Positions 10,355 through 36,594 of a stretch of 64,000 nt of DNA are shown here, one piece after another. The notes under the pieces were generated by a model. That model made no database searches. It saw nothing but the letters and a program-made list of their open reading frames with translations, and was not told the origin of the DNA. The first letter of the stretch is position 1; the number at the start of each line of letters is the position of its first letter. Source of the stretch: a virus (taxonomy: Duplodnaviria > Caudoviricetes); the IMG/VR virus record IMGVR_UViG_3300021387_001565, positions 83,320 through 147,319 of that record; one strand, 5' to 3'. The position numbers and the translations under genes are program-made.

Positions 10355-12289
10355 TCAAGTTTCTTCGTAACTTGTAAAATCTATTCCTAAGTCATCTGCT
10401 GAGGGGAGTTCATCCCCGCCTGCATACTCTTCACCACCCTCTTCGGATGTCTCGGTTTCAACGTCAAAATCAGAATCACCTGCATCCAAATCGGACTTAT
10501 CCATCATATCTGAACTAGAGTCATTGAACGAATGGCTCATAGAACCCCCACCGAAGTCAGACCCAAAACCTTCATCGTTGGTGTCCTCGCCACCGCCCTG
10601 TTGTTCGTCCTCGGTCATCTGTGCAATCTGCTCATCAAGAATATCAAAAATCTCTTGGTCTGACAGAATGGGTCGAAGCAGGATAGAAAGGATACGCAAA
10701 CGCTCCTTCGGTTCGGGTATGTCTTGAAGCATGTTCATAATGTCGCTGACAAGCTGTACCTTTTGAGCAGTATTATCACGACGGTCAATCTCTTCCTGTG
10801 TGGTAGGAGACTGCATCTTAATAACAAACTTATTGATATAGCTTTCAAGCCCCTTATCCAACAGCATAAGATTAATTCCGTCAGTCACGCCCTGTACGAG
10901 ACAAGACTGAACACGCTTAACTGCCTTAGCATAACGGGATGAGATAATGGAGAGCGACTGTCCACCACTAAATCCTGCGGCATCATCCACGATACCAAAA
11001 TACTGTTTGGGAGCACGGAATGCACCGAACAATTTATCTTGATAATAATCTATATCAGTAATTCCCTTAACATCAATATCTCCGCCTATCTGCTGTGTCG
11101 AGATAGCACCAATACCCTGTCTAGTAGGAACATACACGTTATTCTCAACAGGTCCGGGGTTTGTATACTCTTCCATACTTGCCCCTGTGTTAAGTGCGGT
11201 CTTCTGCTCAACGAGATTTTTGATGCTCTGTAAATGCGGTCCGACATTTTCCTTGGGCATGTCGCCAACCTCAACGTTAATCATTCTTACGATTGAGGAT
11301 TTAGTCAGTCGGTTCAACAGCATCGAATTTTCAAGCAGGGTAAGTTCACGCCACAGCCTGTATACAGGGTAGAGCAGGGACTGTCCACGCTTAACTGTAT
11401 ATGTGTACTTGGGGTCATCGTCTGACGGAGTGCTCGATATATTAACTGTCTCGGGGTATCTGCTCGTACTATCATCAAGCGAGATATGAACAAACTCCGT
11501 TGCCTCATACACATTAACATCCTTTCGGTTGAATGTGTATGAATTGTTTATGCCTGTATAATAGTAGTTATCAGATGTAGCAGTAGCCTCTCTTGATTGT
11601 GCTACGTCAGCACGGATATATCCCACGGTCTTACCGAACTTGGTCAACTCATACATTTCGGCGGGATTAGGAACGGCTTCCATGTAGTGAGTATAGTGGT
11701 CGTTCTTATTGAACTTGTTCAATTTGATATCTTCTGTGAGGGCTTTGCGTCCTGCCACAATATCCTTAACCGCGTCTAATTTATCAATCTCAGCAGAGTT
11801 GAACAAATCATCCTGCATTTCAGACTGACGGTACAGACGCAAGTACACATCTCCATAGATTATAAGGGAACGTGCCCATTTATAGACGAACTTATCAACA
11901 TTTGATACATCGAGCAGATATGTAACAAACTTGGCAATATTAGGGTCAGTAGACTCACACCAAACAATACGCCCCTCTTCGTTTGCCTCTGTTGCGTCTT
12001 CCGCGTAAGTCTCAATAACAGCATTAACCGTAGAGTCCTCAGCCATGGCATCAAGCATGGTGTACAACATATCACGCCTATCGGATATACGTGAAAAGTT
12101 GTTAATATCCGACATGTTGATTGTGCTACCATTTGTACCTGCTGAACTTGCAAGAATGTCGTTGAGCAATGTACTCTTGGTGTCAATGCCAATATTCGTC
12201 TCAGCTTTCGGAACAGCCTTTATCGGCTTATCATACGCGTCTTGACTGACTTCCTGCTCATTTGTTTTATCGTTAATATCTTCTCTCAT
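10355..12289 (-). CDS. Portal protein (gp20-like)
   Basis: LIIYGDVY, LLENSMLLNRL, VEVGDMP, DIDYYQDKLFGAFRAPK. Confidence 0.93.
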   Translation of the reverse strand: MREDINDKTNEQEVSQDAYDKPIKAVPKAETNIGIDTKSTLLNDILASSAGTNGSTINMSDINNFSRISDRRDMLYTMLDAMAEDSTVNAVIETYAEDATEANEEGRIVWCESTDPNIAKFVTYLLDVSNVDKFVYKWARSLIIYGDVYLRLYRQSEMQDDLFNSAEIDKLDAVKDIVAGRKALTEDIKLNKFNKNDHYTHYMEAVPNPAEMYELTKFGKTVGYIRADVAQSREATATSDNYYYTGINNSYTFNRKDVNVYEATEFVHISLDDSTSRYPETVNISSTPSDDDPKYTYTVKRGQSLLYPVYRLWRELTLLENSMLLNRLTKSSIVRMINVEVGDMPKENVGPHLQSIKNLVEQKTALNTGASMEEYTNPGPVENNVYVPTRQGIGAISTQQIGGDIDVKGITDIDYYQDKLFGAFRAPKQYFGIVDDAAGFSGGQSLSIISSRYAKAVKRVQSCLVQGVTDGINLMLLDKGLESYINKFVIKMQSPTTQEEIDRRDNTAQKVQLVSDIMNMLQDIPEPKERLRILSILLRPILSDQEIFDILDEQIAQMTEDEQQGGGEDTNDEGFGSDFGGGSMSHSFNDSSSDMMDKSDLDAGDSDFDVETETSEEGGEEYAGGDELPSADDLGIDFTSYEET

Positions 12290-13185: not shown

Positions 13186-15615
13186 TCAGAACACAATTAT
13201 TCCTTGACTTATATAAGGGTTAAACCCATTAGTAGACATCGTTGCGCTCTTTGGTACAGCATTGGCGTGAGCGGCTTTAAGTTCCTCTTCAAAGTCCATG
13301 ATTATCTGCTGTCTGATTGACTCTCCTGTCGGGTCGGTGTTCATCTTAACAGCTTCCTGCATATCTTCACCATAATCAAATGCGAACTCAGCGGCATGAA
13401 GTGAAGCATTGTACAAAGCACCACACACCGCATCCGAAGAGTCCTTTGAGTTAATACCCGAAGGGCTGTGGTCAATCTTACCATTGCTATCACGAACAAG
13501 ACCGATAATCTCATCCGTGAGCAGTTTAGATGCATATGTCTCTATACGTTCTTCGTATATGGCGTTCTTAAAGGTGAGGTACGGTATACATATCCTATCC
13601 TGCAACCTATCCACGGAAATCGTGGAACAGTTAAAATTATGCGCTGATAAGGTCTGTGCTAAATCCGCACTTTGGTAAGTATCGTAGGACACTCCCCTTA
13701 CATTAAATCCATTCTCACGAAGCCAATAGAGGAATTGTCGGTTCTTCTCAAAGGAAACTTGATGACCCTTCGGGGCTTTTACCGACACGTGAAAGGCAAG
13801 ACCGTAATATAGTTCCTTGGAATCGGGTACTCCCTCTTGATGTGGTTTCTTGCCCAAAATCCACACACCGCCAATACCTGTCTTATCACCACTTAGTGAC
13901 ATATCAAGATGCACGTATAGTGGTTTGTACTTCATGTTCGGGTCAACCCTGTCTAAGTCGAAAAAGTCTTTATACTGAACTAAATCGTCGGGAGCATTTC
14001 CAACTACGATAACCTCTTTGGTAAACGGATTTACTCTGCCCTCTTTGCGGCATCTTGCCCAACGGACACCATTGATATAGTTCATGCTGTTCGTGGTTGA
14101 GATACCTGCAATATCAGTCAGTGCAATATCAAGGTCATCAACGAACTGCTCATAATATCCCATAGGGACATCGAGAATCATATATCCCTTGTCTCGGTAT
14201 ATCTGAATCTCTTCTTCGCTTACGTCAAGCGGTAAAACCTCACTGTCAAGGAATTTGTTACCTACAGCAACCTTAAACTTCCTCGGGCTGTCCTTATCAT
14301 TACGGATTACCCACTGAGGTTCATCTATGATTAAAGTCGTTTTGGACTCGTTCTGTTTCTTTTTATCTATATAAGTTTCAAGGAATGACTGCTCGGTACG
14401 TTTGGATGAAGCAAGGATATGAAGCGTAGGCAGGAACTCGCCCTTCATAAAACGTGACTGCATACGAGCATCAACCGAACTGATTAGGGCTTTTGCCTTT
14501 TCCTTCTGCTTCTCAATGTCTTGATTTAATTGGAAACTGACCTCATCGTCGAAATCACAGTTATGAGATACAACATAGCCATCCTTACATCTGATAAAAA
14601 AATTATGTGCGGGAGCGGCTTCCACTACGTCATAAAATTGCTTTGGCTCTCCCAACTTGTTTATGGTTATCTTATGTATGTGCTGAGTACGTAAAGTCAT
14701 TCCAAAATTACGTGCTACGAGAACATCCGATGAGGTAAGATGCTGTGCTTCCTTGTACCGCCCCGTAGTTAGCAAGAACCTGTGGTTAACCGTACACCTA
14801 ATCTCTGTCCCATCTGTTAACTCAACCACGCACTCTGTGTCTGTCTTAACAGTAGGCACAACGGTGCAATCATCGCTCACAGCCAACTGACCCAAACTGC
14901 TCTCCGAGTACACTTTAATGGACTTTCCAACGAGCGACTTTATAGTAAACTCACCTTTTGTGGTAAGTATCTTCGTATCTCCGTCTAAACAAAATACAGC
15001 ACGTCCGATTATATGTCTAGGCTGTGAACCGTATATTAACTCTATTCCGCCGTTTGGTTGCCAAACAGGTTCGTCTGCTTTGTTCAACGTACCATGTGAC
15101 ATAAACCACGGGCTGGACTGAACTAACTGTTGGCACTTATTCCATGCAACACCCTGTGCCGCATCTTTGGTGATATTGATGAAACTGAACGTGATTAAGT
15201 CAATAGGCTGTAACCCGTAATGCTTATATGGGTCTTTAAGACACAGCATACGATACATCATATACAGAAGGGCTATTACCGCAATAAAGGATTTACCAAG
15301 ACCGATAGCACCCGTCAAGACCAATGTGTTATATGCAGTATCTACATTTGTAGGAAAGAGTTTGTGAAGCATTTCTTCCCAATAAGGGAACACAGTAAAC
15401 CTGCCCTCATCGTCTGTAAGACCATTTCCGAGGTAAATCGGGTTATGCAAGAAAGTCTCTATATCTACAGGTATTTCAGCATAGTCATCATATATCAGTG
15501 TGTCATAAGACTGTGATTGACCGCAGGAAGCATACTCTGAAAGTATCTTTAGTACCTCAGAGCGTTCTTCCTCGGTCAATCCTTCTAACTCTTCATCAAT
15601 TAGTAAATTCTGCAT
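13186..15615 (-). CDS. terL: Terminase large subunit with mini-intein
   Basis: Walker A GAIGLGKS, Walker B FDDE after intein removal, nuclease HLDMS..GD, SYDTYQS, KIDH...SKDSSDAVCG. Confidence 0.95.
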   Translation of the reverse strand: MQNLLIDEELEGLTEEERSEVLKILSEYASCGQSQSYDTLIYDDYAEIPVDIETFLHNPIYLGNGLTDDEGRFTVFPYWEEMLHKLFPTNVDTAYNTLVLTGAIGLGKSFIAVIALLYMMYRMLCLKDPYKHYGLQPIDLITFSFINITKDAAQGVAWNKCQQLVQSSPWFMSHGTLNKADEPVWQPNGGIELIYGSQPRHIIGRAVFCLDGDTKILTTKGEFTIKSLVGKSIKVYSESSLGQLAVSDDCTVVPTVKTDTECVVELTDGTEIRCTVNHRFLLTTGRYKEAQHLTSSDVLVARNFGMTLRTQHIHKITINKLGEPKQFYDVVEAAPAHNFFIRCKDGYVVSHNCDFDDEVSFQLNQDIEKQKEKAKALISSVDARMQSRFMKGEFLPTLHILASSKRTEQSFLETYIDKKKQNESKTTLIIDEPQWVIRNDKDSPRKFKVAVGNKFLDSEVLPLDVSEEEIQIYRDKGYMILDVPMGYYEQFVDDLDIALTDIAGISTTNSMNYINGVRWARCRKEGRVNPFTKEVIVVGNAPDDLVQYKDFFDLDRVDPNMKYKPLYVHLDMSLSGDKTGIGGVWILGKKPHQEGVPDSKELYYGLAFHVSVKAPKGHQVSFEKNRQFLYWLRENGFNVRGVSYDTYQSADLAQTLSAHNFNCSTISVDRLQDRICIPYLTFKNAIYEERIETYASKLLTDEIIGLVRDSNGKIDHSPSGINSKDSSDAVCGALYNASLHAAEFAFDYGEDMQEAVKMNTDPTGESIRQQIIMDFEEELKAAHANAVPKSATMSTNGFNPYISQGIIVF
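14560..14991 (-). other. Mini-intein (144 aa, no endonuclease) in TerL
   Basis: Starts CLDGDTKI, block B CTVNHRF, ends VVSHN before +1 Cys. Confidence 0.92.
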
Positions 15616-18407: not shown

Positions 18408-18433
18408 AAAACCCCCGCAAGAACGCGGGGGTT
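18408..18433. terminator. Bidirectional terminator between convergent genes
   Basis: AACCCCCGC-AAGAAC-GCGGGGGTT. Confidence 0.85.
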
Positions 18434-18444
18434 CATTTCGTATA

Positions 18445-19851: not shown

Positions 19852-20226
19852 TCACTCGATAATCTTGTGCACCTCTTCGAGCGCTTCATCGATAACTCGG
19901 TCAATCCAAGCGAGAAGTTCCTCTTGGTCAACGACCTCACGCAGAATAGGGTACTGTGCATAAATAGCATCGATAACCTGACTGCGCTTAATCGACCCTG
20001 ACTTCTTATACTCGCTCCAATCTAACTCTGCCTTGGATACAAGACTAAGCATGATATCCCTAATCTGCTCTTTAGCGAGAGCGACCTTTTCCTCGTTACT
20101 GAGCTTAAGATAATTCTTAATCTTCATGTAGAGCGAGATAATGAGACCGATGATAATGATAATCATTGTCCAATTATCATTGATGAACTTAAGGAAGTTC
20201 ATAATACCATTAAGAATGTTGTTCAA
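19852..20226 (-). CDS. Holin (LL-H-like)
   Basis: One N-terminal TM; AE...SGSIKR..V...ID..IDEA pattern. Confidence 0.7.
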   Translation of the reverse strand: MNNILNGIMNFLKFINDNWTMIIIIIGLIISLYMKIKNYLKLSNEEKVALAKEQIRDIMLSLVSKAELDWSEYKKSGSIKRSQVIDAIYAQYPILREVVDQEELLAWIDRVIDEALEEVHKIIE

Positions 20227-20540
20227 GGTTTTTCATCTCCTTCCTCAGTGGGTATTTCTTCCTCTTCCGTTTCCTGTGCGTCTGTGATATGCCTTACCTT
20301 TGTTATCTTGATACCTGCAAGGGAGAATATCTCTGCTGTCCAAAATGTGAACCAACAGGTAATCAGAGTAGAGCTAACTTCGGTTGATGTGCCATACTGT
20401 ACATACAAACAAGAAGCAGTAAATAAAATAATTGCTATAATCGCTACGAGTAATACTACTCGGGAAGCGGTCATCCGTTTTTTCTTTGGAGTTTTAGAGC
20501 AGTTAGTCTTTTTCTTCGAACGCTTTTTCTTTGTGCTCAT
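20223..20540 (-). CDS. Two-TM membrane protein (holin/antiholin-like)
   Basis: Basic N-terminus, two hydrophobic segments, adjacent to holin. Confidence 0.65.
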   Translation of the reverse strand: MSTKKKRSKKKTNCSKTPKKKRMTASRVVLLVAIIAIILFTASCLYVQYGTSTEVSSTLITCWFTFWTAEIFSLAGIKITKVRHITDAQETEEEEIPTEEGDEKP

Positions 20541-23500
20541 TAATCATATACTCCTTATATATACCCTGTGCGGCGAAGCCATCTCTGACCTGCTCCCACG
20601 TTTCGGGCATAAATACGACATTAGGTAAGGACTTGAGCATATCAAGTTCCTCTTTGGGTATAATCTTTAACGACCATTCATCGGGCATACGCAGTACAAA
20701 CTTCTTATTGGGTTCATACTTCGCATAAAACATAGCCCAATAATAGGCGTTAACAAGACACCTAGCCTTGTGCATTTCGCAGATATAAGTTGCTCTGTGA
20801 TATACTGTACCGCTGTCTTGATAATTGTAAGCCGCACAATCAGCACAACCACCTGCGATGGGACAGAAGAAGCATTCATCTGTATTATAAGTTCGGCGGG
20901 TTACTCCGCAAATCTCACACAAAGTGCACTTCTCTTCTTCACACTGACATATTCCTGTATCAACGTGTCCGATACGGATAGGCGGTCTCTCATCACCGAG
21001 CGAACTCTCCATATACCTAATACAAGGATAAAGGTATCCGTCGGGGTCGCAAGAAAGCATGTCACCCAACCCCCCACAATTTCCAGACACCACACTTCCT
21101 GCAAAATACGAGTGGTCATCAGCAACAGTGATATTATACACCTCTTGAGGCTCGACATCCCTTGTCGTGAACCGAGACGTAAATAACATATCTCCGTCAG
21201 TAGAGTAATATCTGCTTACGTACTTTTCTGCGGGGATGTTTGCAAACCACCTGTCACCATGTCGGGTAACCTCTCTACCGAGTAGTATTTCTTTCTTCCC
21301 GTCTACTCTTAAGGGTTTATCACAAACAGGGCGATAACCTACTGTTCTTGCGATGAGCATTAACTCGTTAATTAAGGTCATTGACTGAGTAGATATATTA
21401 TAATAGTCTGCCCCAACCTTTTGCTTTAAATACCCATCGGCAGAGATAAAGCCCATCAGTAATGCTTCAAGTGATTCGTTATCCCAAGACCAACACTCAG
21501 CGGGGATATGCTTGTTATGGGCTAAATGTCCTATATCTTTAGCAAGTCTTACATAAGTATCGTAATTGGGATTACCAACGTTCTGTGTCTTTATGGGACG
21601 GAAGTTGTAAGTGGACGCTCCCTCGGAACATCCGTATACTATCCCTGCGTCGTCGTAACACTTCTTCAAATTATCGAGGTCGTGTTTGCCACAGCACAGA
21701 CGAGGCTCGGCGTTTTTGTCATCCCAACATCCGTCGCCTATTGTTCTTCCGAGCAGATAAGCAACACTCGCATCTACTGATACCGTTCTATTAGAGGGTA
21801 ATACTGCAACCCTTACTCTACTCTTTGTGGGATGCTTCACATTGTGTATTTCCTGCACTTCGTATTTCCCATAAGGTTTGAAGTGGTCGGTATTCTTCCA
21901 ACCTCTGTAGTCATAAGGCTCAGCAAATAAATGATGGTCTTTTGTGCATACCATAGGCTGAACGCCGCTTGCCCGTATCTCTACACAGTTATCGGCAAAA
22001 TGATGCATAGTGTTTATTACAGGCTTTATATTGCCTTGTTCGGTGTAGACCACATCACCAATTTTGATTTCTTCAATCGGTTTATACCCTTTATCGGTGA
22101 GAATCGGTGTACCCTTACCCCAACACCACGTCTGGGTATCACTGGGTAACTTGGGAGTGAAGAACGAATCCTCAAGGATAGATACGAAGATATCTTTTTC
22201 AAGATTATTGTCAAGTAAGTATTGGCATGCATCCTTTAATTGATAATACAATTTGGTGGAATGTTCCTGCGTCCAACCCTTCTCATAAACACAGTTACAG
22301 TTGATTTCCTTGTAGCCCATTTCCACCATGTGCTTAATGGCGTGTGATACATGGTCTATATTGCCCGGGGCTATGGTAATCTTACTGCCCATGTAGTATC
22401 CCTTGGACATCCAATCTTTCGCGGCGGCTACTGCTAAATCATACGAACCACTTCCATCGGGGAATACTCGGCAACTGTCGTGCAGTTCTTTATCACCATC
22501 TATAGTGACAGAGAATGAAAGGTTGTTCTTCCACTTCTTTAAGAACTTCTGTACCTTGGGTTCAAAATAGAGAGTTCCGTTTGAGCAGATACTGAACATA
22601 AATCTTTTTGCCCATGGATGATGAAGTTCAATTGCTCTATCGTAGAAGTAAGTGCAAACGTAGTCAATGAGGTCAACGTTAGTGAACGGCTCACCGCCAA
22701 TGAACTCAATGATAATTGCAGGGCTGAAACTAGGGTCAACATAGTCTTTGAAGCCCTTGTCACCCGATAACAACAGGTCTACGAACTTACGTGCGGTTTC
22801 CTGTGACATCATACGGGTTTTTTTGTTGATTTGGTAACAGTACGAACAGTTATGCACAAGAAAGTCGTTAGCTATATACACATGGCTTTCCGTTTCCATG
22901 TTATACACCGTAACTTCCTCGGCATCGATAAGTTCATTATCAAGTACGCTAACCCGACTAAAAATGCTCTTTCCGAGTAGACCATTAAGACTCTTTCGAG
23001 GAATTGCAGGACGAATGGTTGATAACAGGGCTAAAAGCTCTCCGTGCAGAGTAACTATCCACTTGTGGTCATAATTGGGTGTTGTTCCTGTGTCTGCTTT
23101 TGCCCATTCGATATTGAGTAAATCGGCACAGCGGGTCACTTCGTTAATAATGCGGTCGCTAGTGTTGGTAATACGGATAACACCCCCGACGTTGCCCTCA
23201 GTGTCGATTAACCCTGCAAGAAATCCTTTGGCATATGCGGTTGAGGTATTCGTTGCCAAATTGGATTCAATAAGGTTACGAAGCTGTTCCGTTGCCACTG
23301 CCCCTTGCGCGAATATTGCAGGGTAGGACACTTCCCCAAAAGCAAACGGCTTAACCGTAATGTCTATGCCGATGGAGCGCATGAACTGCTCAAGTTGGTT
23401 GGTACACTCGATATCCTTAACCACAAAGCGGTTCTGATAATTGGGTGTAGGAGCGTCTTTCAACTCGCCGTTCTTGTAGTATGCCATTGTCCCGTCACCA

Positions 23501-24048
23501 AGCCATACTCCTACCACATAACCTGCTCTATAATCTACATTGTCAATGTCGGGTATGTCATGCTCGACAATACCGTTAAACACCATCAGTTTAGTTTTAG
23601 GAGTAATGGTTTCGGCGCGTCGCCAATTCTTCCTATCGTCAAGAAACGGATGCTCATCTGTAGTATAGATGGTTGCTCCCTGAGCGGTAGTAATCTTCCG
23701 CACCTTGTCATGCCTGTGGAAGATATACTTTACTTTTGTCTTTGACAGGGTTATTTGCTTGCCCTTAGATGCTTTGGTGTCAAAGGACATTACTTCGTCA
23801 CCTACAGTAACATCCTCAATGTTCTTGTAGGTAAAATCCGTCATAAGGATTTTAGTCCCCGCAGGAAAGCATTTAAGATTACAGTAGTCAGTCACCTGAA
23901 AAGTGACCGTTCGTGATAATACGTGGTCTTTACCGTGCTTCTGTGGGCTACTACCATCATCCTCAGAACGTTGATTTAACTCGGGGTACAGGCGAGCAAT
24001 CATGTCTTGGTATTGCTCAAAGTGTAATCTGTCAGTTTTAACGCCCAT
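20503..24048 (-). CDS. Radical SAM/SPASM peptide maturase (CXXX-repeat target type) with two inteins
   Basis: After splicing: VTFQVTDYCNLKCSYCYQ (CxxxCxxC), EFIGGEP, SVTIDG.KELHDSCR, WCGG...YPCIRY, CFFCPIAGGCADC; about 491 aa mature. Confidence 0.93.
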   Translation of the reverse strand: MGVKTDRLHFEQYQDMIARLYPELNQRSEDDGSSPQKHGKDHVLSRTVTFQVTDYCNLKCFPAGTKILMTDFTYKNIEDVTVGDEVMSFDTKASKGKQITLSKTKVKYIFHRHDKVRKITTAQGATIYTTDEHPFLDDRKNWRRAETITPKTKLMVFNGIVEHDIPDIDNVDYRAGYVVGVWLGDGTMAYYKNGELKDAPTPNYQNRFVVKDIECTNQLEQFMRSIGIDITVKPFAFGEVSYPAIFAQGAVATEQLRNLIESNLATNTSTAYAKGFLAGLIDTEGNVGGVIRITNTSDRIINEVTRCADLLNIEWAKADTGTTPNYDHKWIVTLHGELLALLSTIRPAIPRKSLNGLLGKSIFSRVSVLDNELIDAEEVTVYNMETESHVYIANDFLVHNCSYCYQINKKTRMMSQETARKFVDLLLSGDKGFKDYVDPSFSPAIIIEFIGGEPFTNVDLIDYVCTYFYDRAIELHHPWAKRFMFSICSNGTLYFEPKVQKFLKKWKNNLSFSVTIDGDKELHDSCRVFPDGSGSYDLAVAAAKDWMSKGYYMGSKITIAPGNIDHVSHAIKHMVEMGYKEINCNCVYEKGWTQEHSTKLYYQLKDACQYLLDNNLEKDIFVSILEDSFFTPKLPSDTQTWCWGKGTPILTDKGYKPIEEIKIGDVVYTEQGNIKPVINTMHHFADNCVEIRASGVQPMVCTKDHHLFAEPYDYRGWKNTDHFKPYGKYEVQEIHNVKHPTKSRVRVAVLPSNRTVSVDASVAYLLGRTIGDGCWDDKNAEPRLCCGKHDLDNLKKCYDDAGIVYGCSEGASTYNFRPIKTQNVGNPNYDTYVRLAKDIGHLAHNKHIPAECWSWDNESLEALLMGFISADGYLKQKVGADYYNISTQSMTLINELMLIARTVGYRPVCDKPLRVDGKKEILLGREVTRHGDRWFANIPAEKYVSRYYSTDGDMLFTSRFTTRDVEPQEVYNITVADDHSYFAGSVVSGNCGGLGDMLSCDPDGYLYPCIRYMESSLGDERPPIRIGHVDTGICQCEEEKCTLCEICGVTRRTYNTDECFFCPIAGGCADCAAYNYQDSGTVYHRATYICEMHKARCLVNAYYWAMFYAKYEPNKKFVLRMPDEWSLKIIPKEELDMLKSLPNVVFMPETWEQVRDGFAAQGIYKEYMINEHKEKAFEEKD
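21079..22125 (-). mobile_element. Intein 2 (349 aa) with LAGLIDADG homing endonuclease
   Basis: CWGKGTPI...CTKDHHL...RTIGDG...GFISADG...VVSGN before +1 Cys (penultimate Gly). Confidence 0.92.
22849..23871 (-). mobile_element. Intein 1 (341 aa) with LAGLIDADG homing endonuclease
   Basis: CFPAGTKI...TTDEHPF...VWLGDG...FLAGLIDTEG...FLVHN before +1 Cys. Confidence 0.93.
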
Positions 24049-24068
24049 TAAATATCCTCTCAGTCTAT

Positions 24069-24098
24069 AAAAGGGAACGACAATAGCCGCTCCCTTTT
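24069..24098 (-). terminator. Terminator-like hairpin between accessory gene and radical SAM gene
   Basis: AAAAGGGA...TCCCTTTT. Confidence 0.55.
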
Positions 24099-24115
24099 AC
24101 ACATTTGGTTGATTA

Positions 24116-24457
24116 TTACTTAAAGAGAGCCTTGAACTCTTCCTCGGTAAACTTGTTACCCTTGTAGGTAATAGTTACCATCTGAGTAGCAAAATCCAAA
24201 TTCCAAGTGGTGTTTGCTCCGTCCTCGGTCAGAATCTTCTCGGGGATAGTGAACGTCTGAAACTCAGTCTTTGCCTTGTCGAACTCGGCAAATGTTTCCT
24301 CATATTCCTTCTTGTAGTCCTTGAATGAGTCAGTGTTGATGGGCTTGTCGTTCTCAAGCATAAAAGCAATGATTGACTTTCCGCTCTCAACTTCCCTTGA
24401 TAACCTCTCAATTCTCGTGGCAAAGGCAGGGTCTGCCTTAATGGTGATACTAAACAT
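24116..24457 (-). CDS. CXXX-repeat modification system accessory protein (TIGR04116-like)
   Basis: Helical hairpin then WNLDFATQMVTI; between Cys-rich gene and radical SAM; RBS AAGGAGAGG favours MFSIT start. Confidence 0.7.
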   Translation of the reverse strand: MFSITIKADPAFATRIERLSREVESGKSIIAFMLENDKPINTDSFKDYKKEYEETFAEFDKAKTEFQTFTIPEKILTEDGANTTWNLDFATQMVTITYKGNKFTEEEFKALFK

Positions 24458-24558
24458 AGTCCTCTCCTTCATAAGTAGTTAGTCTAAAAACTATTACTGA
24501 CACGTAGATTGCCCGTGTCAGTAATATCATACAATATAACGTTTTAAAAATCAACAGA

Positions 24559-26322
24559 TTACCAGTATATTGGAGCAAGCACATGTCCTGTCGCTGTTCC
24601 GAAACAACCCGAGGTACAATTAGACGAGCAACCTGTTGAGCAGGCGGTCTTACAGCCCGAAGAGCATCCTGCGGAGCAACCACTGCATCCCGAGCCACAT
24701 CCTGTACATGAGGATGAGCACGAAGTGCTACATCCTGTACAGCCTGCACTACAGTCAAGACTACATGAAGCAGTACAGTTAGAGGAGCAGGAATTTGAGC
24801 AACCTGTACATCCTGTACAGCCACTACAATCACATCCTGTGCCTGTATTACTTCCCGAGCCTGTGCATCCGCCACAGCCCGTACAGCCCGAACAACTGCA
24901 TGTTGATGAACCACCCGACTGTGATGTTCCTGTTGCACTTGTGTAACAGCCCGAGCAACCCGAACAACCGCCACTACAGCCTGTGCTACATCCCGAACAA
25001 CCACTACTACAGCCACCTGTACAACCACTGCCACACCCACTACATCCTGTACAGCCACTTTTGCATGCACTGCCACAACCCGTACAGTTGGAGCATCCCG
25101 AGCCACATGAGCCACCACAGGAAGACGTACAGCTTGAGCATCCCGAACAGCTTGACCAACACTTTGAACTACAGTTACCCAAACATCCTGTACAAGCACT
25201 GCATCCACTACCACATGATGACGAACAACCCGCACAGCCTGTACAGCCGTCACCACAGGATAGTTTACACGTAGAGGAACAACTTGACGTGCAGGAAGAG
25301 GCACAAACATCCGAACAACCACTTGTGCAGTCACCTTTACAGGTGTTGTTGCATGTTCCTGTACATCCGCCACCGCATTTGCCCGAACAACCGCTACCAC
25401 ATCCCGAACAACCACTGCATCCCGAGCAATTTGAACTACACGACTCACAACCACTTGAGCATGATGTACAGCCACTTTTGCAACCATTAGCGCAAGCCGC
25501 ACCACAACTTGAAGTACAGTTTCCACCACAATCTCCACAGCCATCAGCGGTGTTCTTACATCCACCACCACAGGAACTGTCACACCCGCTACAGGTTGAT
25601 TTGCAGGTATTGCCACAACTGCCACTACAGCCGCCGCTACAGCCGCTACCACAACCACTACACGAGGTACATCCACCCGAACAGTATCCGCTACAGTCGC
25701 CACGGCATCCGCCCGAGCACCCCTCACAGCCCGAACCACAGCCCGAGCCGCAACCGCTACATGCACCCCAACAGCCCGAGCCGCAACCGTCACAACCCGT
25801 ACAGCCGCTCTTACACCCGCTTGAACAGTTATCTTTGCAGTTGGCAGTACAGGTGCTTGAACAACCCGAACAAGAACTTGAACAGCCCGAACAAGTGCCC
25901 GAACAGCTTGAGGAACAGCCCAAACAAGTTCCACCACAGCCATTGCAGGATGACGCACAAGAAGAATGGCACAAGCCCGTACAGTTACCACGGCATCCAC
26001 TTGCCGCGAGGGTATTTGCTTCTTGGATACTTGCGTCCTCTAACTGAGTGAGCCATGTTGAAATAGTATCATAATCAAAATCATCGGGAATAGGTTGGTC
26101 TGAACTTACGTTCGTCAAATCTCCCAAGTCGTTGATTTTCAAAAGTAAGTCAATCGTCTTCTGCCCGTGTTCAGCATTTATAATAGAACCTGCGGTAGGA
26201 TTCGTTGAAAAGTCGTAAGAAGCATCGCTGTACTCACTTACTGACCCCGAATATCGTCTACGGGCAAGTTCTGCCTTTATTCTCGCTTTCAGCGTAACGA
26301 GTTGACTTGCTGTCATTCCCAT
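24559..26322 (-). CDS. Very long Cys-rich CxxC/CxxxC repeat protein (putative radical SAM substrate)
   Basis: About 108-aa Cys-free N-domain then about 122 Cys (hand count) spaced by S/G/T. Confidence 0.92.
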
Positions 26323-26329
26323 CTATCAA

Positions 26330-27394
26330 TCACCCCCAAACACTTCTAGGTGTCATCCATCTTTCAGTGGTACTGTCATATACCTTCTGAATATATCCGT
26401 TCGCTGTGTCGACCCAAATCATCTTCTTGTTTGTCGGAGCGGTCGGACCGAACCATGTGCTGTCAGCAAGTGCTCCGTATACAGTCTGAGAAGTGACCGT
26501 GCCGCTATCTGTGGTTATTGTTACGGATGCGTCAGAATTAAACACAAGTGACTTAATGGTATTAGCCTTTTTAGAGTACGTCGCTTTGATGTTATTTCCA
26601 TCTTCATCTTGAAGTGCTCTTGTCGCAGTACCCGCTGATGTAGCTGTTGTTGCGGTATCTGCACTTACAGCATGGGTCGCAGTCCCTACTGTAATATCGC
26701 TTGCGTTTGCCCAAACAGGAGCACTTGTTCCGCCCGAAGATTTCAAAATCTGTCCTGCTGTACCCGCTCCTGTCGGTGCGTAGAAGTTTGAACTGCTTGT
26801 GTATGCGTGCGAGTTATTTATGCTTGGTGTACCGTTATATACCGTACGTTCGGTCACAAGATTCGTTCCCGAACTAGTCAACGCAGTAGCCGATGAATTA
26901 TCCTTGATTGCCTTTGTTGCCGCTCCGCCAAGACCAAGAGCAACGCGTGCCGCAGAAGCATTGGAACTACCTGTACCGCCATGCTCGACAGGAAGAACGC
27001 CCGTCATTTGAGACAAGTCAGTAGTATCCGTGAATTTAGCGTCGGAAGGAACTGACTTATTTAATTCATAAGTACACGGATTGACTGCACCATTATTTAA
27101 GTAAACAGGTCTAGTCGCGCTACCGCCTGTCAAAGTAGACTTTCTTGCGTAACTATTGTAGATGTTATTGCCTTTATCGTCTGCTACTGCTCGCATAGCC
27201 GTGAACACAAAATTCTCATCAATCATGCTACGGAGCAGGTTGTACTCATCGGGAGTAAACGGAGCACCATTGTAGGCATTGGCAAGATTTACAATACCCG
27301 ACTCAATATTGTTCATATTGGTCTGATTCAACGGTGTTTGATTGTTTTTCCATTCGGTACGATTATAATTAACTGCCATTTTATTGCACCTCAC
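26330..27394 (-). CDS. Tail fibre-like protein
   Basis: YNRTEWKN..TPLN..NMNNIESGI, GVLPVEHGGTG..ARVALGL, ATxA repeats, GPTAP...IWVDT. Confidence 0.8.
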   Translation of the reverse strand: MRCNKMAVNYNRTEWKNNQTPLNQTNMNNIESGIVNLANAYNGAPFTPDEYNLLRSMIDENFVFTAMRAVADDKGNNIYNSYARKSTLTGGSATRPVYLNNGAVNPCTYELNKSVPSDAKFTDTTDLSQMTGVLPVEHGGTGSSNASAARVALGLGGAATKAIKDNSSATALTSSGTNLVTERTVYNGTPSINNSHAYTSSSNFYAPTGAGTAGQILKSSGGTSAPVWANASDITVGTATHAVSADTATTATSAGTATRALQDEDGNNIKATYSKKANTIKSLVFNSDASVTITTDSGTVTSQTVYGALADSTWFGPTAPTNKKMIWVDTANGYIQKVYDSTTERWMTPRSVWG

Positions 27395-27750
27395 TCAAGC
27401 CAAAACAATTTCTCGTTAATCAGTGTAGTAACCGTGAGTTCATTCTGATTGACTGTATTCCCTATCTTTATAGTGTAATAATACTTGCCCGGGTACAGGA
27501 ACTCTGTATCCGAGGTAGATAAATGAAATACCAAATCATTGTCTACAATATCTTCAAACTTAACCATCTTTTTGATGATAGCGTCTTCAAATAGTTGGTT
27601 AGGTTCAGCGATGCCCAAATAGAAAGTATCTGCTTCGGTGCATCCCTTAACGACATCCTTTGCGTTGTCAAGCAGACTTGTAAGGTGTATATCTGCTGTA
27701 TCTCCGCGAGTAAGACGAATAATTTTGTTGAAAGATATATGCATGGTCAC
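27391..27750 (-). CDS. Baseplate-associated Ig-like protein
   Basis: IRLTRGDT...L.TSDT..L.PGKYYY pattern. Confidence 0.6.
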   Translation of the reverse strand: MTMHISFNKIIRLTRGDTADIHLTSLLDNAKDVVKGCTEADTFYLGIAEPNQLFEDAIIKKMVKFEDIVDNDLVFHLSTSDTEFLYPGKYYYTIKIGNTVNQNELTVTTLINEKLFWLE

Positions 27751-28391
27751 ACCACCCTAAACTTGATAGTCTCTTCGGTCAAATAGTAATCATCGGATAC
27801 AATAGCAACAGTACAGGTGTATAGCCCACGGATGAATAAGTCTTTTGATACATCATCGGTGATACACACCACTGCGCTGTTTGCTCCTTCAAATATACGA
27901 GTAAAGACAGTCTCACGTCGCCAATCTGTAAACGTGATAACAAGCATCTTATCGGTCATGTTTGGAGTGAGAGTAACTTCTTTCGGGTCATTCTCATCGT
28001 AAACAAGTCCATCATCAACTACCCAAATATAGGATGTCTCTACTCCGTTCTGAGTTCTGCCTGTTCTTATCTCTGTACACGTCCACGACCTAATATCAGT
28101 GACATTATAGCACTTCTGACCAATCTTACCTACTGTTGTTGCCCTCGGCTCTCGTCCGACCTCATCATACAGTAAGGCATCTTCGGGAACATGTATCACT
28201 CTGTTTACAGTAAAGTAAAAATTGTTAGAGTTTCCATAATCCCATTTGTAGTCAATTAACTTACCCGTCTCGTCATGCTCTTCCGCAAGAGAAGAATACT
28301 TCATAACTATCTCTGAATCAGCAAGCCTGTCGTGCATATTATCGGGTATATAATTTGTATCTTGGTTTATATAATTATCAAACATTCCCAT
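27747..28391 (-). CDS. Probable baseplate/fibre-associated protein
   Basis: Beta-rich, first gene of the fibre operon. Confidence 0.6.
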   Translation of the reverse strand: MGMFDNYINQDTNYIPDNMHDRLADSEIVMKYSSLAEEHDETGKLIDYKWDYGNSNNFYFTVNRVIHVPEDALLYDEVGREPRATTVGKIGQKCYNVTDIRSWTCTEIRTGRTQNGVETSYIWVVDDGLVYDENDPKEVTLTPNMTDKMLVITFTDWRRETVFTRIFEGANSAVVCITDDVSKDLFIRGLYTCTVAIVSDDYYLTEETIKFRVV

Positions 28392-32547: not shown

Positions 32548-33168
32548 TTAATTGTTGGCAAGTTTTGTTAATTGCTTATTGTACTTGACGAGTTTCTTAC
32601 GGGCAATGGCTTTCTGTTTATCGGACAGATAGCCATGCTTCTTTAAGAACTCTGCGAAAGAAGAGAGAATAGGGCTGTCAACACCGTTGAAACCATAACC
32701 GTTATTTTCAGTGGTAGCACCAACACTCTGCTCTTCTGCTGTCTGACACTCATAGAGTTTGAGAAGACCGCCATAGAGTACCTTGTCGTTGGACTGAATG
32801 AGCGTCTTAACCTCTTCCTCAGTCCAAATTCTCTTGGGCTTTTCTTCCTTTGCAGGAGCAACTACTGTAGGCTGTGTAGTGGCAGTAACATCTACCCAAC
32901 CGAATGAATCACAGTAAAAATACTTGAGTTCCCCGTTGTTCTCAGTGGCTACGATGTCACTGACGCTGAGGGAATGTCCCTTAAAATCAGCAGGGTGGTT
33001 GCAGTTGAACTCTTCAAACATCTCGTCGAGTCCTGTGTAGTTTCTTTCTGCCACATATACCTGCTCATAGTCAGCAAGATTAAAACCGTGCTCTTTTGCA
33101 AAGTCCCATCTCATAAAACCGTAAGCAGTGTCTCTCATGTCTCTTAACTGATAGAGGAAGAATTTCAT
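32548..33168 (-). CDS. YodL-like domain fused to a helical phage domain
   Basis: YQLR, FEEFN..HPADFKGHSLSVSDIV, YCDSFGW; C-domain QTAEEQ...NGYGFNGVD. Confidence 0.85.
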   Translation of the reverse strand: MKFFLYQLRDMRDTAYGFMRWDFAKEHGFNLADYEQVYVAERNYTGLDEMFEEFNCNHPADFKGHSLSVSDIVATENNGELKYFYCDSFGWVDVTATTQPTVVAPAKEEKPKRIWTEEEVKTLIQSNDKVLYGGLLKLYECQTAEEQSVGATTENNGYGFNGVDSPILSSFAEFLKKHGYLSDKQKAIARKKLVKYNKQLTKLANN

Positions 33169-35697: not shown

Positions 35698-36594
35698 TTA
35701 TGCTTTTACAATTCCTTTGAGAACCCCTAAATTCTCATATCCTTCAAGTCGAATATCCTTAAGTTCCTTCGATGTGTCAAAGTCGAAGAAGTCCTTAATC
35801 TCGGGGTTAATCCAAAGAGTAGGGGCAGGCATCTTGATTGCTTCATCTCTGCGTTTGAGCATTTCTTCTACAGTATCCCAATGTTCCTCATACAAGTGAA
35901 CGTCACACATGTTGTAGTGCATTTCTCCTGCCTCAAGTCCACATGTATGTGCAATCATGTAATGTTGCATAGCGTACTGTGTGATGTTGAACGGAACGCC
36001 AAGGAAAGTATCACATGACCTCTGCTCTACAAAGGAATACAGTTTACCGTCCATTACAACGTACTGAACCTTGTACACACACGGGGGAAGAACAGCATCC
36101 TTAAAGAACGGCGGTTGCCACATGGTAATGATGATACGGCGGTCATTTGGAGTGTTCTTGATTTTGTTGATAGCTACACGAACTTGGTCAATGTCCGCAA
36201 CCTCACTTCCATGCTTAATGATATAAGCATAGGACTTTCCAATAGTGTGAGCAAATTCTTCTCCGATAAATTTTTCTTCTCCTGTGTCGGGGTTGCGATA
36301 GATACCGTCCTCAGATGTCTCGAACTTATCCCAAATGTGGATATTACGTTCCTGCAACCACCTTACATCGATTGACTGTACAAGATAAATCCACATCATC
36401 TCAAGTGTGGCAGTCTTCCAACCGACCTTCTTACAGTTTAAGATTGGGAACTCTCCACCGTATTTGGGATTGAGATTAAACACCCAATGTGCCCCGGGGA
36501 TACGTTTAGTAATTCCGTTTCGACCTTCGGCAACAACACCTTTACGTAATATCTTCTCACAGGTGTCGAGATACAACTTGTCAAAGTTAGCCAT
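35698..36594 (-). CDS. thyA: Thymidylate synthase
   Basis: PNDRRII, LPPC, QRSCDTFLGVPFNITQY, DVHLYEEH. Confidence 0.97.
   Translation of the reverse strand: MANFDKLYLDTCEKILRKGVVAEGRNGITKRIPGAHWVFNLNPKYGGEFPILNCKKVGWKTATLEMMWIYLVQSIDVRWLQERNIHIWDKFETSEDGIYRNPDTGEEKFIGEEFAHTIGKSYAYIIKHGSEVADIDQVRVAINKIKNTPNDRRIIITMWQPPFFKDAVLPPCVYKVQYVVMDGKLYSFVEQRSCDTFLGVPFNITQYAMQHYMIAHTCGLEAGEMHYNMCDVHLYEEHWDTVEEMLKRRDEAIKMPAPTLWINPEIKDFFDFDTSKELKDIRLEGYENLGVLKGIVKA

Follow-up and report, generated by a model that had tools for sequence, protein, structure and literature searches.

The last 64 kb of a linear, 147,319-bp IMG/VR virus contig (IMGVR_UViG_3300021387_001565; estimated completeness, 88%), referred to here as the window, comes from a contractile-tailed phage and carries a cluster of genes for a fiber-like protein, a 587-amino-acid (aa) protein with a long ladder of cysteines, a small accessory protein, and a radical S-adenosylmethionine (SAM)/SPASM maturase interrupted by two inteins. 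On balance, we favor the interpretation that this cluster is a late-operon module that makes an enzyme-modified, fiber-associated protein. Judged from gene context, the Cys-ladder protein is likely to be modified by the enzyme and linked to the fiber, and the kit probably modifies an appendage of the virus particle chemically. A more specific version, which we put forward tentatively and at slightly less than even weight, is that in phages of gut Clostridia a part of a host-recognition fiber is a Cys ladder stapled by thioethers in place of disulfides and docked on a short module, here called VWG, at the end of the fiber-like protein. The genes and their parts are as follows (positions are those of the window).

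26330-27394, minus strand: fiber-like protein, 354 aa, with weak PHROG and PDB sequence matches
26333-26458, minus strand: C-terminal VWG module of the fiber-like protein, aa 313 to 354, defined by conservation across loci
25996-26322, minus strand: N-terminal domain (N-domain) of the Cys-ladder protein, aa 1 to 109, conserved in 20 aligned homologues
24604-25995, minus strand: Cys ladder, aa 110 to 573 (464 aa), 122 Cys by direct count
24559-24603, minus strand: C-terminal cap C-F-G-T-A-T-G... with the stop codon; homologues have a comparable cap, C-[YF]-G-x-[AS]-T-G
24492-24526, minus strand: 13-bp hairpin with a U-run 3' of the Cys-ladder gene, a possible attenuator (-19.9 kcal/mol, z -3.0)
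24116-24457, minus strand: accessory protein, 113 aa, from an ATG at 24457 supported by a ribosome-binding site (RBS); the full open reading frame (ORF) is 24116-24472
24066-24101, minus strand: 16-bp hairpin between the accessory and enzyme genes (RNA fold, -26.1 kcal/mol, z -5.8)
20503-24048, minus strand: radical SAM/SPASM maturase precursor, 1181 aa, TIGR04115
23872-24048, minus strand: N-extein of the maturase, aa 1 to 59, ending C-N-L-K, delimited by alignment with intein-free homologues
22849-23871, minus strand: intein 1, aa 60 to 400 (341 aa), with a LAGLIDADG endonuclease (Hom_end_hint, Intein_splicing, LAGLIDADG_3, and Hint matches)
22126-22848, minus strand: middle extein, aa 401 to 641, radical SAM core (TIGR04115 positions 13 to 256)
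21079-22125, minus strand: intein 2, aa 642 to 990 (349 aa), with a homing endonuclease (Hint_2 and Hom_end matches)
20506-21078, minus strand: C-extein, aa 991 to 1181, SPASM-type Cys-rich domain and tail (TIGR04115 positions 251 to 359, E 1e-32)

An earlier note on this DNA, made from the letters alone, had described a 587-aa protein with about 122 Cys whose gene starts 7 nucleotides (nt) after the fiber gene. Direct counting gave exactly 122 Cys in the encoded protein (24559-26322, minus strand), and the start 7 nt after the stop codon of the 354-aa gene was confirmed. The protein is made up chiefly of Ser (130), Cys (122), Gly (120), and Thr (54), the same four residues that fill most of the ladder, where Cys accounts for 26% of positions. 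The ladder Cys span residues 110 to 573 at gaps of 4 (77 times) or 3 (39 times), with five exceptions, and the ladder opens with the junction C-R-G-x-C-T-G-L-C, which is invariant in both homologue alignments. A search for tandem repeats at the DNA level detected only tiny arrays, and the ladder is therefore not a recent DNA expansion. The N-domain was modeled by AlphaFold2 as four helices with a predicted local distance difference test score (pLDDT) of 75 to 88. Fold searches with it retrieved no known fold (best Z, 5.6, from generic helical matches), a fold search of a viral library retrieved only uncharacterized homologues, and a word-based homologue search found none at near lengths. The N-domain could serve for attachment, as the handle by which the enzyme recognizes its substrate, or for both purposes.

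The earlier note had set the cluster beside the CXXX-repeat system, in which TIGR04114 is the target. Membership of the ladder protein in TIGR04114 was not upheld, as the TIGR04114/PF27846 hidden Markov model (HMM) gave 13.9 bits in a six-frame search against a cut-off of 20, and hmmscan of NCBIfam and Pfam returned no match for the 587-aa protein. A shorter homologue (locus L003) does pass TIGR04114, with 21.3 bits, and PF27846 is found on 19 to 40% of the members of the nearest Atlas clusters. The tandem Cys at every fourth residue beside a maturase gene that mark TIGR04114-type targets are present, but in a ladder of mixed 3/4 spacing rather than strict CXXX. Ribosomally synthesized and posttranslationally modified peptides (RiPPs) are defined by a short precursor, a protease-cut leader, and, usually, export. 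The ladder protein has 587 aa and a predicted folded N-domain, and family scans of the neighboring genes detected no protease, transporter, or immunity gene in the transcription unit, as the earlier note had stated. Thus, maturation may resemble that of a RiPP, yet the product is no peptide natural product by the RiPP definition.

Membership of the enzyme in TIGR04115 was supported by a score of 404.3 bits (cut-off, 350; E 6e-121), divided between two stretches that flank intein 2. The next-best families were PapB (NF047865; E 5e-42), QhpD (TIGR03906; E 2e-20), and the SCIFF maturases, with scores for the PapB and CteB/SCIFF families far under their own cut-offs. Further matches of the enzyme are to anaerobic sulfatase maturases (E 3.5e-10) and, weakly and via its intein part, to the intein-bearing radical SAM family NF038136 (E 2.5e-11). 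The closest solved structure to the radical SAM core is CteB (5wgg; E 1e-12). The enzyme gene begins about 500 nt past the stop codon of the ladder gene, two genes on, and overlaps the next ORF (20223-20540), as previously described, by 38 nt.

Although the enzyme had been correctly recognized as a radical SAM/SPASM protein, two LAGLIDADG inteins had been overlooked, and it is because of these that the ORF is 1181 aa long. Their boundaries were taken from alignment with intein-free homologues of 435 to 467 aa that are continuous across both sites. Each intein has Cys1, a block B T-x-x-H, a terminal Asn, a +1 Cys, and two LAGLIDADG motifs. Intein 1 splits the cluster motif (C-N-L-K/Cys...His-Asn/C-S-Y-C), so that its +1 nucleophile is the second Cys of CX3CX2C, and intein 2 sits directly 5' of the first SPASM Cys (W/Cys...Gly-Asn/C-G-G). 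Splicing in silico yielded a 491-aa enzyme with CX3CX2C (C-N-L-K-C-S-Y-C) at residues 56 to 63 and 14 Cys between 301 and 407 in the C-terminal domain; the complete CX3CX2C motif appears only after this splicing. As predicted from these boundaries, an active enzyme can only arise if both inteins splice, restoring CX3CX2C and the first SPASM motif. Three insertion sites were found among relatives, each immediately before a conserved Cys: site a in the window and L065; site b in the window, L024, and L025; and site c in L026. A further intein-bearing copy of the enzyme occurs in L086. Three sites before catalytically important Cys would mean that inteins target the most conserved positions of a phage enzyme. 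In the N-extein, about 45 residues precede the core, and a recognition domain of the enzyme's own would not fit in so short a stretch.

The accessory gene has GGAGAGG 5 nt upstream of its ATG, and homologues stand at the equivalent position in 38 loci. The AlphaFold2 model (pLDDT, 95.5) consists of a strand, two long helices, a short helix, and a beta hairpin, which form a helical hairpin packed on a three-stranded sheet; the RiPP recognition element used for comparison, PqqD, is a winged helix. Foldseek found nothing in the PDB at E ≤0.001, and the best VIA Z of 7.2 came from generic helical hairpins. The Atlas clusters closest to the accessory comprise hundreds of viral proteins annotated as hypothetical. 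Membership in TIGR04116, the accessory family of the CXXX-repeat system (cut-off, 50 bits), was not supported, since the protein had no match to this model even at E 10 and five homologues had none at E 1. TIGR04116 searches of five host genomes likewise gave nothing over the cut-off. A profile-profile comparison with canonical TIGR04116 proteins was not significant (probability, 12%) and aligned only the C-terminal W-x-[IL]-D-F-x-T. The hairpins that follow the ladder and accessory genes may lower the level of the enzyme relative to its substrate.

The 354-aa gene that had been called a tail fiber gene is present, but its fiber identity rests on weak matches, namely phrog_10316 tail fiber (E 6e-4) and, among PDB sequences, the tail fiber 7z47 (E 0.0015) and the R2 pyocin fiber (E 0.026), both at aa 98 to 163. 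The protein is 27.5% identical over its full length to the product of the upstream gene in L024. Its last ~40 residues, the VWG module, are the sole part kept in the upstream genes of other loci. The motif, ...APxxxxx-W-[IV]-D...KxY...W...VWG, lies at the very end of the protein and has invariant Pro, Trp, Asp, Trp, and terminal Val-Trp-Gly. The phage itself has a single copy of the module. Across about ten locus types the upstream gene finishes with it, 3 to 30 nt before the ladder gene; in other lineages the upstream gene has a second type of C terminus. Two upstream genes with the module (L012 and L022) match phrog_26419 tail fiber at 8e-12 and 6e-18, respectively. Prediction of a complex between three copies of the C-terminal 100 aa of the fiber-like protein and three of the N-domain (aa 1 to 125) scored 0.06 and 0.02 and gave no answer. 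At 26331-26345 (minus strand), the codons for the terminal Trp-Gly of the fiber-like gene and its stop read TGGGGGTGA, which also resembles an RBS for the ladder gene beginning 8 nt further on.

Scans of viral contigs identified 7 loci with the enzyme core and 54 loci with the N-domain alignment. Of the loci, 45 extend at least 4.5 kb downstream, and the enzyme is present in every one of these; N-domain protein, accessory, and enzyme are all detectable by BLAST in 38. The enzymes fall into 18 clusters, or lineages, at 90% identity. Other ladder proteins with this N-domain have 168 to 522 aa, the 587-aa protein of the window being the longest, and have in common a Lys/Arg-rich N-terminal helix, the C-R-G-x-C-T-G-L-C junction, and the C-[YF]-G-x-[AS]-T-G cap. 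In two loci (L031:10001-10600 and L028:10001-10600), the N-domain frames each contain two in-frame stops, which could reflect stop-codon recoding or broken genes.

The upstream neighbors were checked against PHROG in ten diverse loci. Six match tail fiber, tail, or baseplate wedge families (tail fiber in L012, L022, and L028; tail protein in L026; baseplate wedge in L034, 7e-41; weak tail matches in L016), one matches a head or virion protein (L019), one has a weak minor-head-protein match only (L015), and two match only families of unknown function (L013 and L018). Downstream neighbors are mainly large proteins of unknown PHROGs, with one tail fiber, and on a human-faecal phage scaffold (MT835573) the kit is flanked by fiber-like genes. 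A random position of the cassette in related phages had been named as a finding that would speak against a virion role. The position is not random; the unit occurs in 18 phage lineages, usually beside fiber, tail, or baseplate genes.

The ladder also occurs in fused forms. Six proteins of 1582 to 1803 aa, without a signal peptide, consist of ~1000 Cys-free residues, some with Flg_new repeats, and a C-terminal ~600 aa of strict CXXX ladder with a similar cap; the 114-kb contig that encodes one of them also carries a T4-type portal gene and a radical SAM gene with an intein. This architecture supports the view that the ladder forms the distal part of a large surface protein of the phage.

Disulfides are unstable in reducing, anoxic habitats. 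The earlier proposal that the ladder serves where disulfides cannot form fits the relatives from bacterial genomes, almost all of which are in strict anaerobes. The 20 relatives detected in bacterial genomes were nearly all in Clostridia (Lachnospiraceae, Oscillospiraceae, Eubacterium pyruvativorans, Emergencia, and Agathobacter). A related cassette is present in the prophage-bearing isolate Eubacterium pyruvativorans i6 (L074). No match was found among cultured-phage records by megablast with the cassette or by tblastn with the N-domain or the accessory. A search of sequencing runs located the stretch only in its probable source sample, an animal gut metagenome (2013); two metatranscriptome runs of that sample contained nothing matching it, and no RNA data set with the stretch was found.

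In the mechanism that we propose, both inteins would splice to give the 491-aa enzyme. The accessory protein would probably bind or present the substrate via the N-domain or the C-R-G-x-C-T-G-L-C junction; recognition is assigned to the accessory because an N-terminal recognition domain would not fit in the enzyme. By analogy with its nearest characterized relatives, PapB, CteB, and QhpD, the enzyme would most likely move along the ladder, forming thioether bridges from Cys sulfur to carbon, while the hairpins would hold it below the level of its substrate. The finished protein would probably dock by its N-domain on the VWG module of the fiber-like protein, and the modified ladder would provide a redox-proof distal part of the fiber in the anoxic gut. 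Metal loading, rigidity, and protease resistance of the ladder are conceivable further properties.

Several observations weigh against this interpretation. The fiber assignment of the 354-aa protein is weak, and the cassette lies outside the main tail/baseplate block, 5' of the terminase gene and adjoining putative lysis genes. The first 90 residues of the ladder have no confident AlphaFold2 fold (pLDDT, 35 to 49). Few residues of the ladder are Asp or Glu, which PapB and QhpD use as acceptors (11 Asp and 2 Glu versus 122 Cys). Intein 2 has Gly as its penultimate residue, without the usual His. Canonical TIGR04115 systems modify small exported peptides and stand beside ABC transporters, and no paper on a phage Cys-ladder kit was found in the literature.

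It is unlikely, in our judgment, that the modified ladder protein is kept out of the particle and is instead freed at lysis or retained in the cell. Such a protein could bind metal, sulfur, a matrix, or a surface, or it could be directed against competitors, with the N-domain as a leader-like handle that is never cut. A nonstructural product has a precedent in the small peptides of canonical systems, which are made beside ABC exporters, and it would suit a cassette placed far from the baseplate block and in one transcription unit with putative lysis genes. The N-domain always accompanies the accessory and the enzyme while the upstream gene varies, and in the ladder protein of one faecal scaffold a signal resembling those of twin-arginine translocation (Tat) replaces the N-domain. 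However, a VWG-ended gene lies immediately 5' of the Cys gene, at 3 to 30 nt, in many lineages, and in other phages the cassette is embedded among baseplate and fiber genes. The fused ladders end phage proteins of 1600 to 1800 aa that lack a signal peptide, and searches for exporter, protease, or immunity genes in the present cluster were negative.

A quite unlikely alternative, which is compatible with a virion role, is that the ladder is mainly a metal or iron-sulfur array or that the enzyme carries out chemistry other than thioether formation. The best-scoring characterized relatives all form thioethers (PapB, E 5e-42; QhpD; SCIFF; and CteB), and a dedicated enzyme and accessory are kept with every ladder protein, which would be needless for simple metal binding. 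The resemblance of a ladder with 26% Cys and intervening Gly and Ser to metal-binding Cys-rich proteins nevertheless points the other way, as do the match to anaerobic sulfatase maturases, which oxidize Cys to formylglycine, and the scarcity of Asp and Glu acceptors. Tat export is linked to cofactor-loaded proteins, and the Tat-like signal on the bacterial-type homologue would suit such a protein. With Asp and Glu this rare, bridging of every Cys would require chemistry that differs from that of PapB and QhpD; the ladder sequence suggests that either other acceptor residues are used or only part of the Cys are bridged.

It is very improbable that selfish elements are inactivating the maturase gene and that the cassette is nonfunctional in this phage: one gene does hold two homing-endonuclease inteins, the second ending in G-N rather than H-N, and the terminase is probably intein-bearing too, but the 1181-codon frame is open, both inteins retain Cys1, block B T-x-x-H, terminal Asn, and the +1 Cys, the exteins still score above the TIGR04115 cut-off, the L024 intein at the same site has a penultimate Lys, which indicates that the lineage tolerates the missing His, and some inteins without the penultimate His are known to splice.

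Canonical CXXX-repeat systems were fetched from Clostridia with TIGR04116, which was present in 4 of 399 genomes. They combine a ~57-aa CxxxC peptide, a 728-aa enzyme, an 88-aa accessory, and ABC transporters. The phage kit is like them in its TIGR04115 enzyme and in a target with short, regular Cys spacing, and the accessories of both belong to a ~100-aa size class with a helical body and a C-terminal W-x-[IL]-D-F-x-T. Unlike them, the kit is viral, with a 587-aa substrate bearing an N-domain, mixed 3/4 spacing, and an intein-split enzyme, and no exporter was found in the phage unit. The phage kit thus resembles the CXXX-repeat system in its working, and the enzyme alone is a formal family member.

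The known substrates of radical SAM/SPASM maturases are small antimicrobial or signaling peptides and one enzyme subunit, QhpC. PapB, of the ranthipeptides (NF047865), and CteB, of SCIFF (5wgg), have a radical SAM core and a SPASM domain, as does the phage enzyme, and form Cys thioether bridges in repeated Cys motifs. Their substrates are leader-bearing peptides of 40 to 50 residues, compared with 587 aa in the phage, and PapB requires the Asp/Glu acceptors that are rare in the phage ladder. QhpD is a SPASM radical SAM enzyme that forms internal Cys thioethers in QhpC, the gamma subunit of quinohemoprotein amine dehydrogenase, which stays in a larger assembly and is not a free peptide. QhpC is periplasmic and bacterial and has three bridges in ~80 to 110 residues, whereas the phage protein has up to 122 candidate sites. 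Chain-built fibers, such as gp34 to gp37 of phage T4, and metal-stabilized fiber tips offer an analogy: in the phage cassette, too, the products of adjacent genes could be joined end to end in gene order, and the gaps of 3 to 30 nt suit translational coupling. No homology to the fiber proteins of T4 was detected. An intein within a radical SAM gene is also known from NF038136 (Rv2578c family), which is a different radical SAM family; the phage enzyme differs in having two inteins, one exactly inside CX3CX2C.

Covalent modification of a fiber part by a radical SAM enzyme was not described in the literature searched. If the proposal is true, the ladder protein would be the first virion structural protein cross-linked enzymatically by RiPP-type chemistry, and in this phage its formation would require protein splicing to occur twice in the enzyme. 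Confirmation would establish a new way to build virus particles and a protein with possibly >100 enzymatic cross-links. It would bear on how receptor-binding parts of gut phages remain stable without disulfides, on the annotation of widespread "hypothetical" phage genes (Atlas clusters with hundreds of members), and on whether the enzyme could serve as a stapling tool for long repeat proteins. What is new in this instance is the double-intein enzyme, the longest substrate of the N-domain type, the adjacency to a VWG module, and the site outside the main tail block.

The surroundings of the cassette include the following features.

27747-28391, minus strand: 214-aa ORF, the first gene after a 180-nt gap; no family match
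27391-27750, minus strand: 119-aa ORF; no family match
20223-20540, minus strand: 105-aa protein with two hydrophobic segments, putatively holin-like, with weak membrane-protein matches
19852-20226, minus strand: 124-aa protein; TIGR01673 holin_LLH at 22.3 bits, under the cut-off of 34.75
18409-18434, no strand assigned: strong two-way terminator with an 11-bp G+C-rich stem that closes the transcription unit
13186-15615, minus strand: terminase large subunit, 809 aa, by family matches

Between 28391 and 18445, every credible gene is on the minus strand, in agreement with the co-oriented run reported earlier. Other parts of that description had to be given up. The genes upstream of the fiber-like gene are not recognizable as baseplate genes, as the 214-aa and 119-aa ORFs (27391-28391) had no match in Pfam, NCBIfam, or PHROGs and the 214-aa ORF had no PDB sequence match; both ORFs are absent from the closest relative, L024. 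The proteins called holins have only weak matches to such families. A homologue of the 105-aa holin-like protein also lies 3' of the enzyme gene in L024. Nor does the cassette lie inside the main block of tail and baseplate genes. The sheath (1008-2315), tape-measure, and baseplate block occupies 57.9 to 85.6 kb of the genome, 3' of the terminase and head genes, and the distance from the cassette to this main tail block is at least 18 kb. The portion at 57.9 to 83.6 kb, beyond the window, contains a tape-measure-sized ORF, baseplate-sized ORFs, and several ORFs of 700 to 1100 aa. Portal, protease, major head protein, and sheath genes are all on the minus strand of the window. A scan for sigma-70-type promoters gave matches no commoner than in shuffled sequence.

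The terminase is probably intein-bearing; Pfam Intein_splicing matches aa 225 to 508 (E 4e-6, below the gathering score), and the terminase family matches are interrupted, flanking the putative intein on both sides. A YodL-like protein (32548-33168, minus strand; Pfam E 1e-22) and thymidylate synthase (35698-36594, minus strand; PHROG E 8e-71) are encoded 5' of the cassette, and the region above 28.5 kb is therefore not a virion module.

Cys-ladder proteins beside other radical SAM genes were also encountered. The 174-aa Cys-ladder protein of L004 (MT837480.1, 2222-2746) is encoded beside a related radical SAM enzyme and carries the Tat-like signal S-R-R-E-F-F-K in place of the phage N-domain, pointing to an exported variant of the bacterial type. 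In SPN3US-like jumbo phages, a distant radical SAM protein (28% identity) is encoded beside two Cys-ladder ORFs of ~130 aa. In the Salmonella phage SPN3US (L099, NC_027402.1), these ORFs (11414-11818 and 11829-12221, minus strand) are flanked by a virion structural gene and two radical SAM genes, and the RefSeq annotation places an ORF in another frame over the first of them. No paper tying these ORFs to virions was found in the literature. A 230-kb phage contig (L013/L006, IMGVR_UViG_3300029305_001599) has two N-domain ladder genes in tandem. About 5 kb 3' of its cassette lies another radical SAM gene, of more distant relationship, and after it a gene for a 364-aa protein that has 81 Cys in a different, Asp/Asn-rich pattern.

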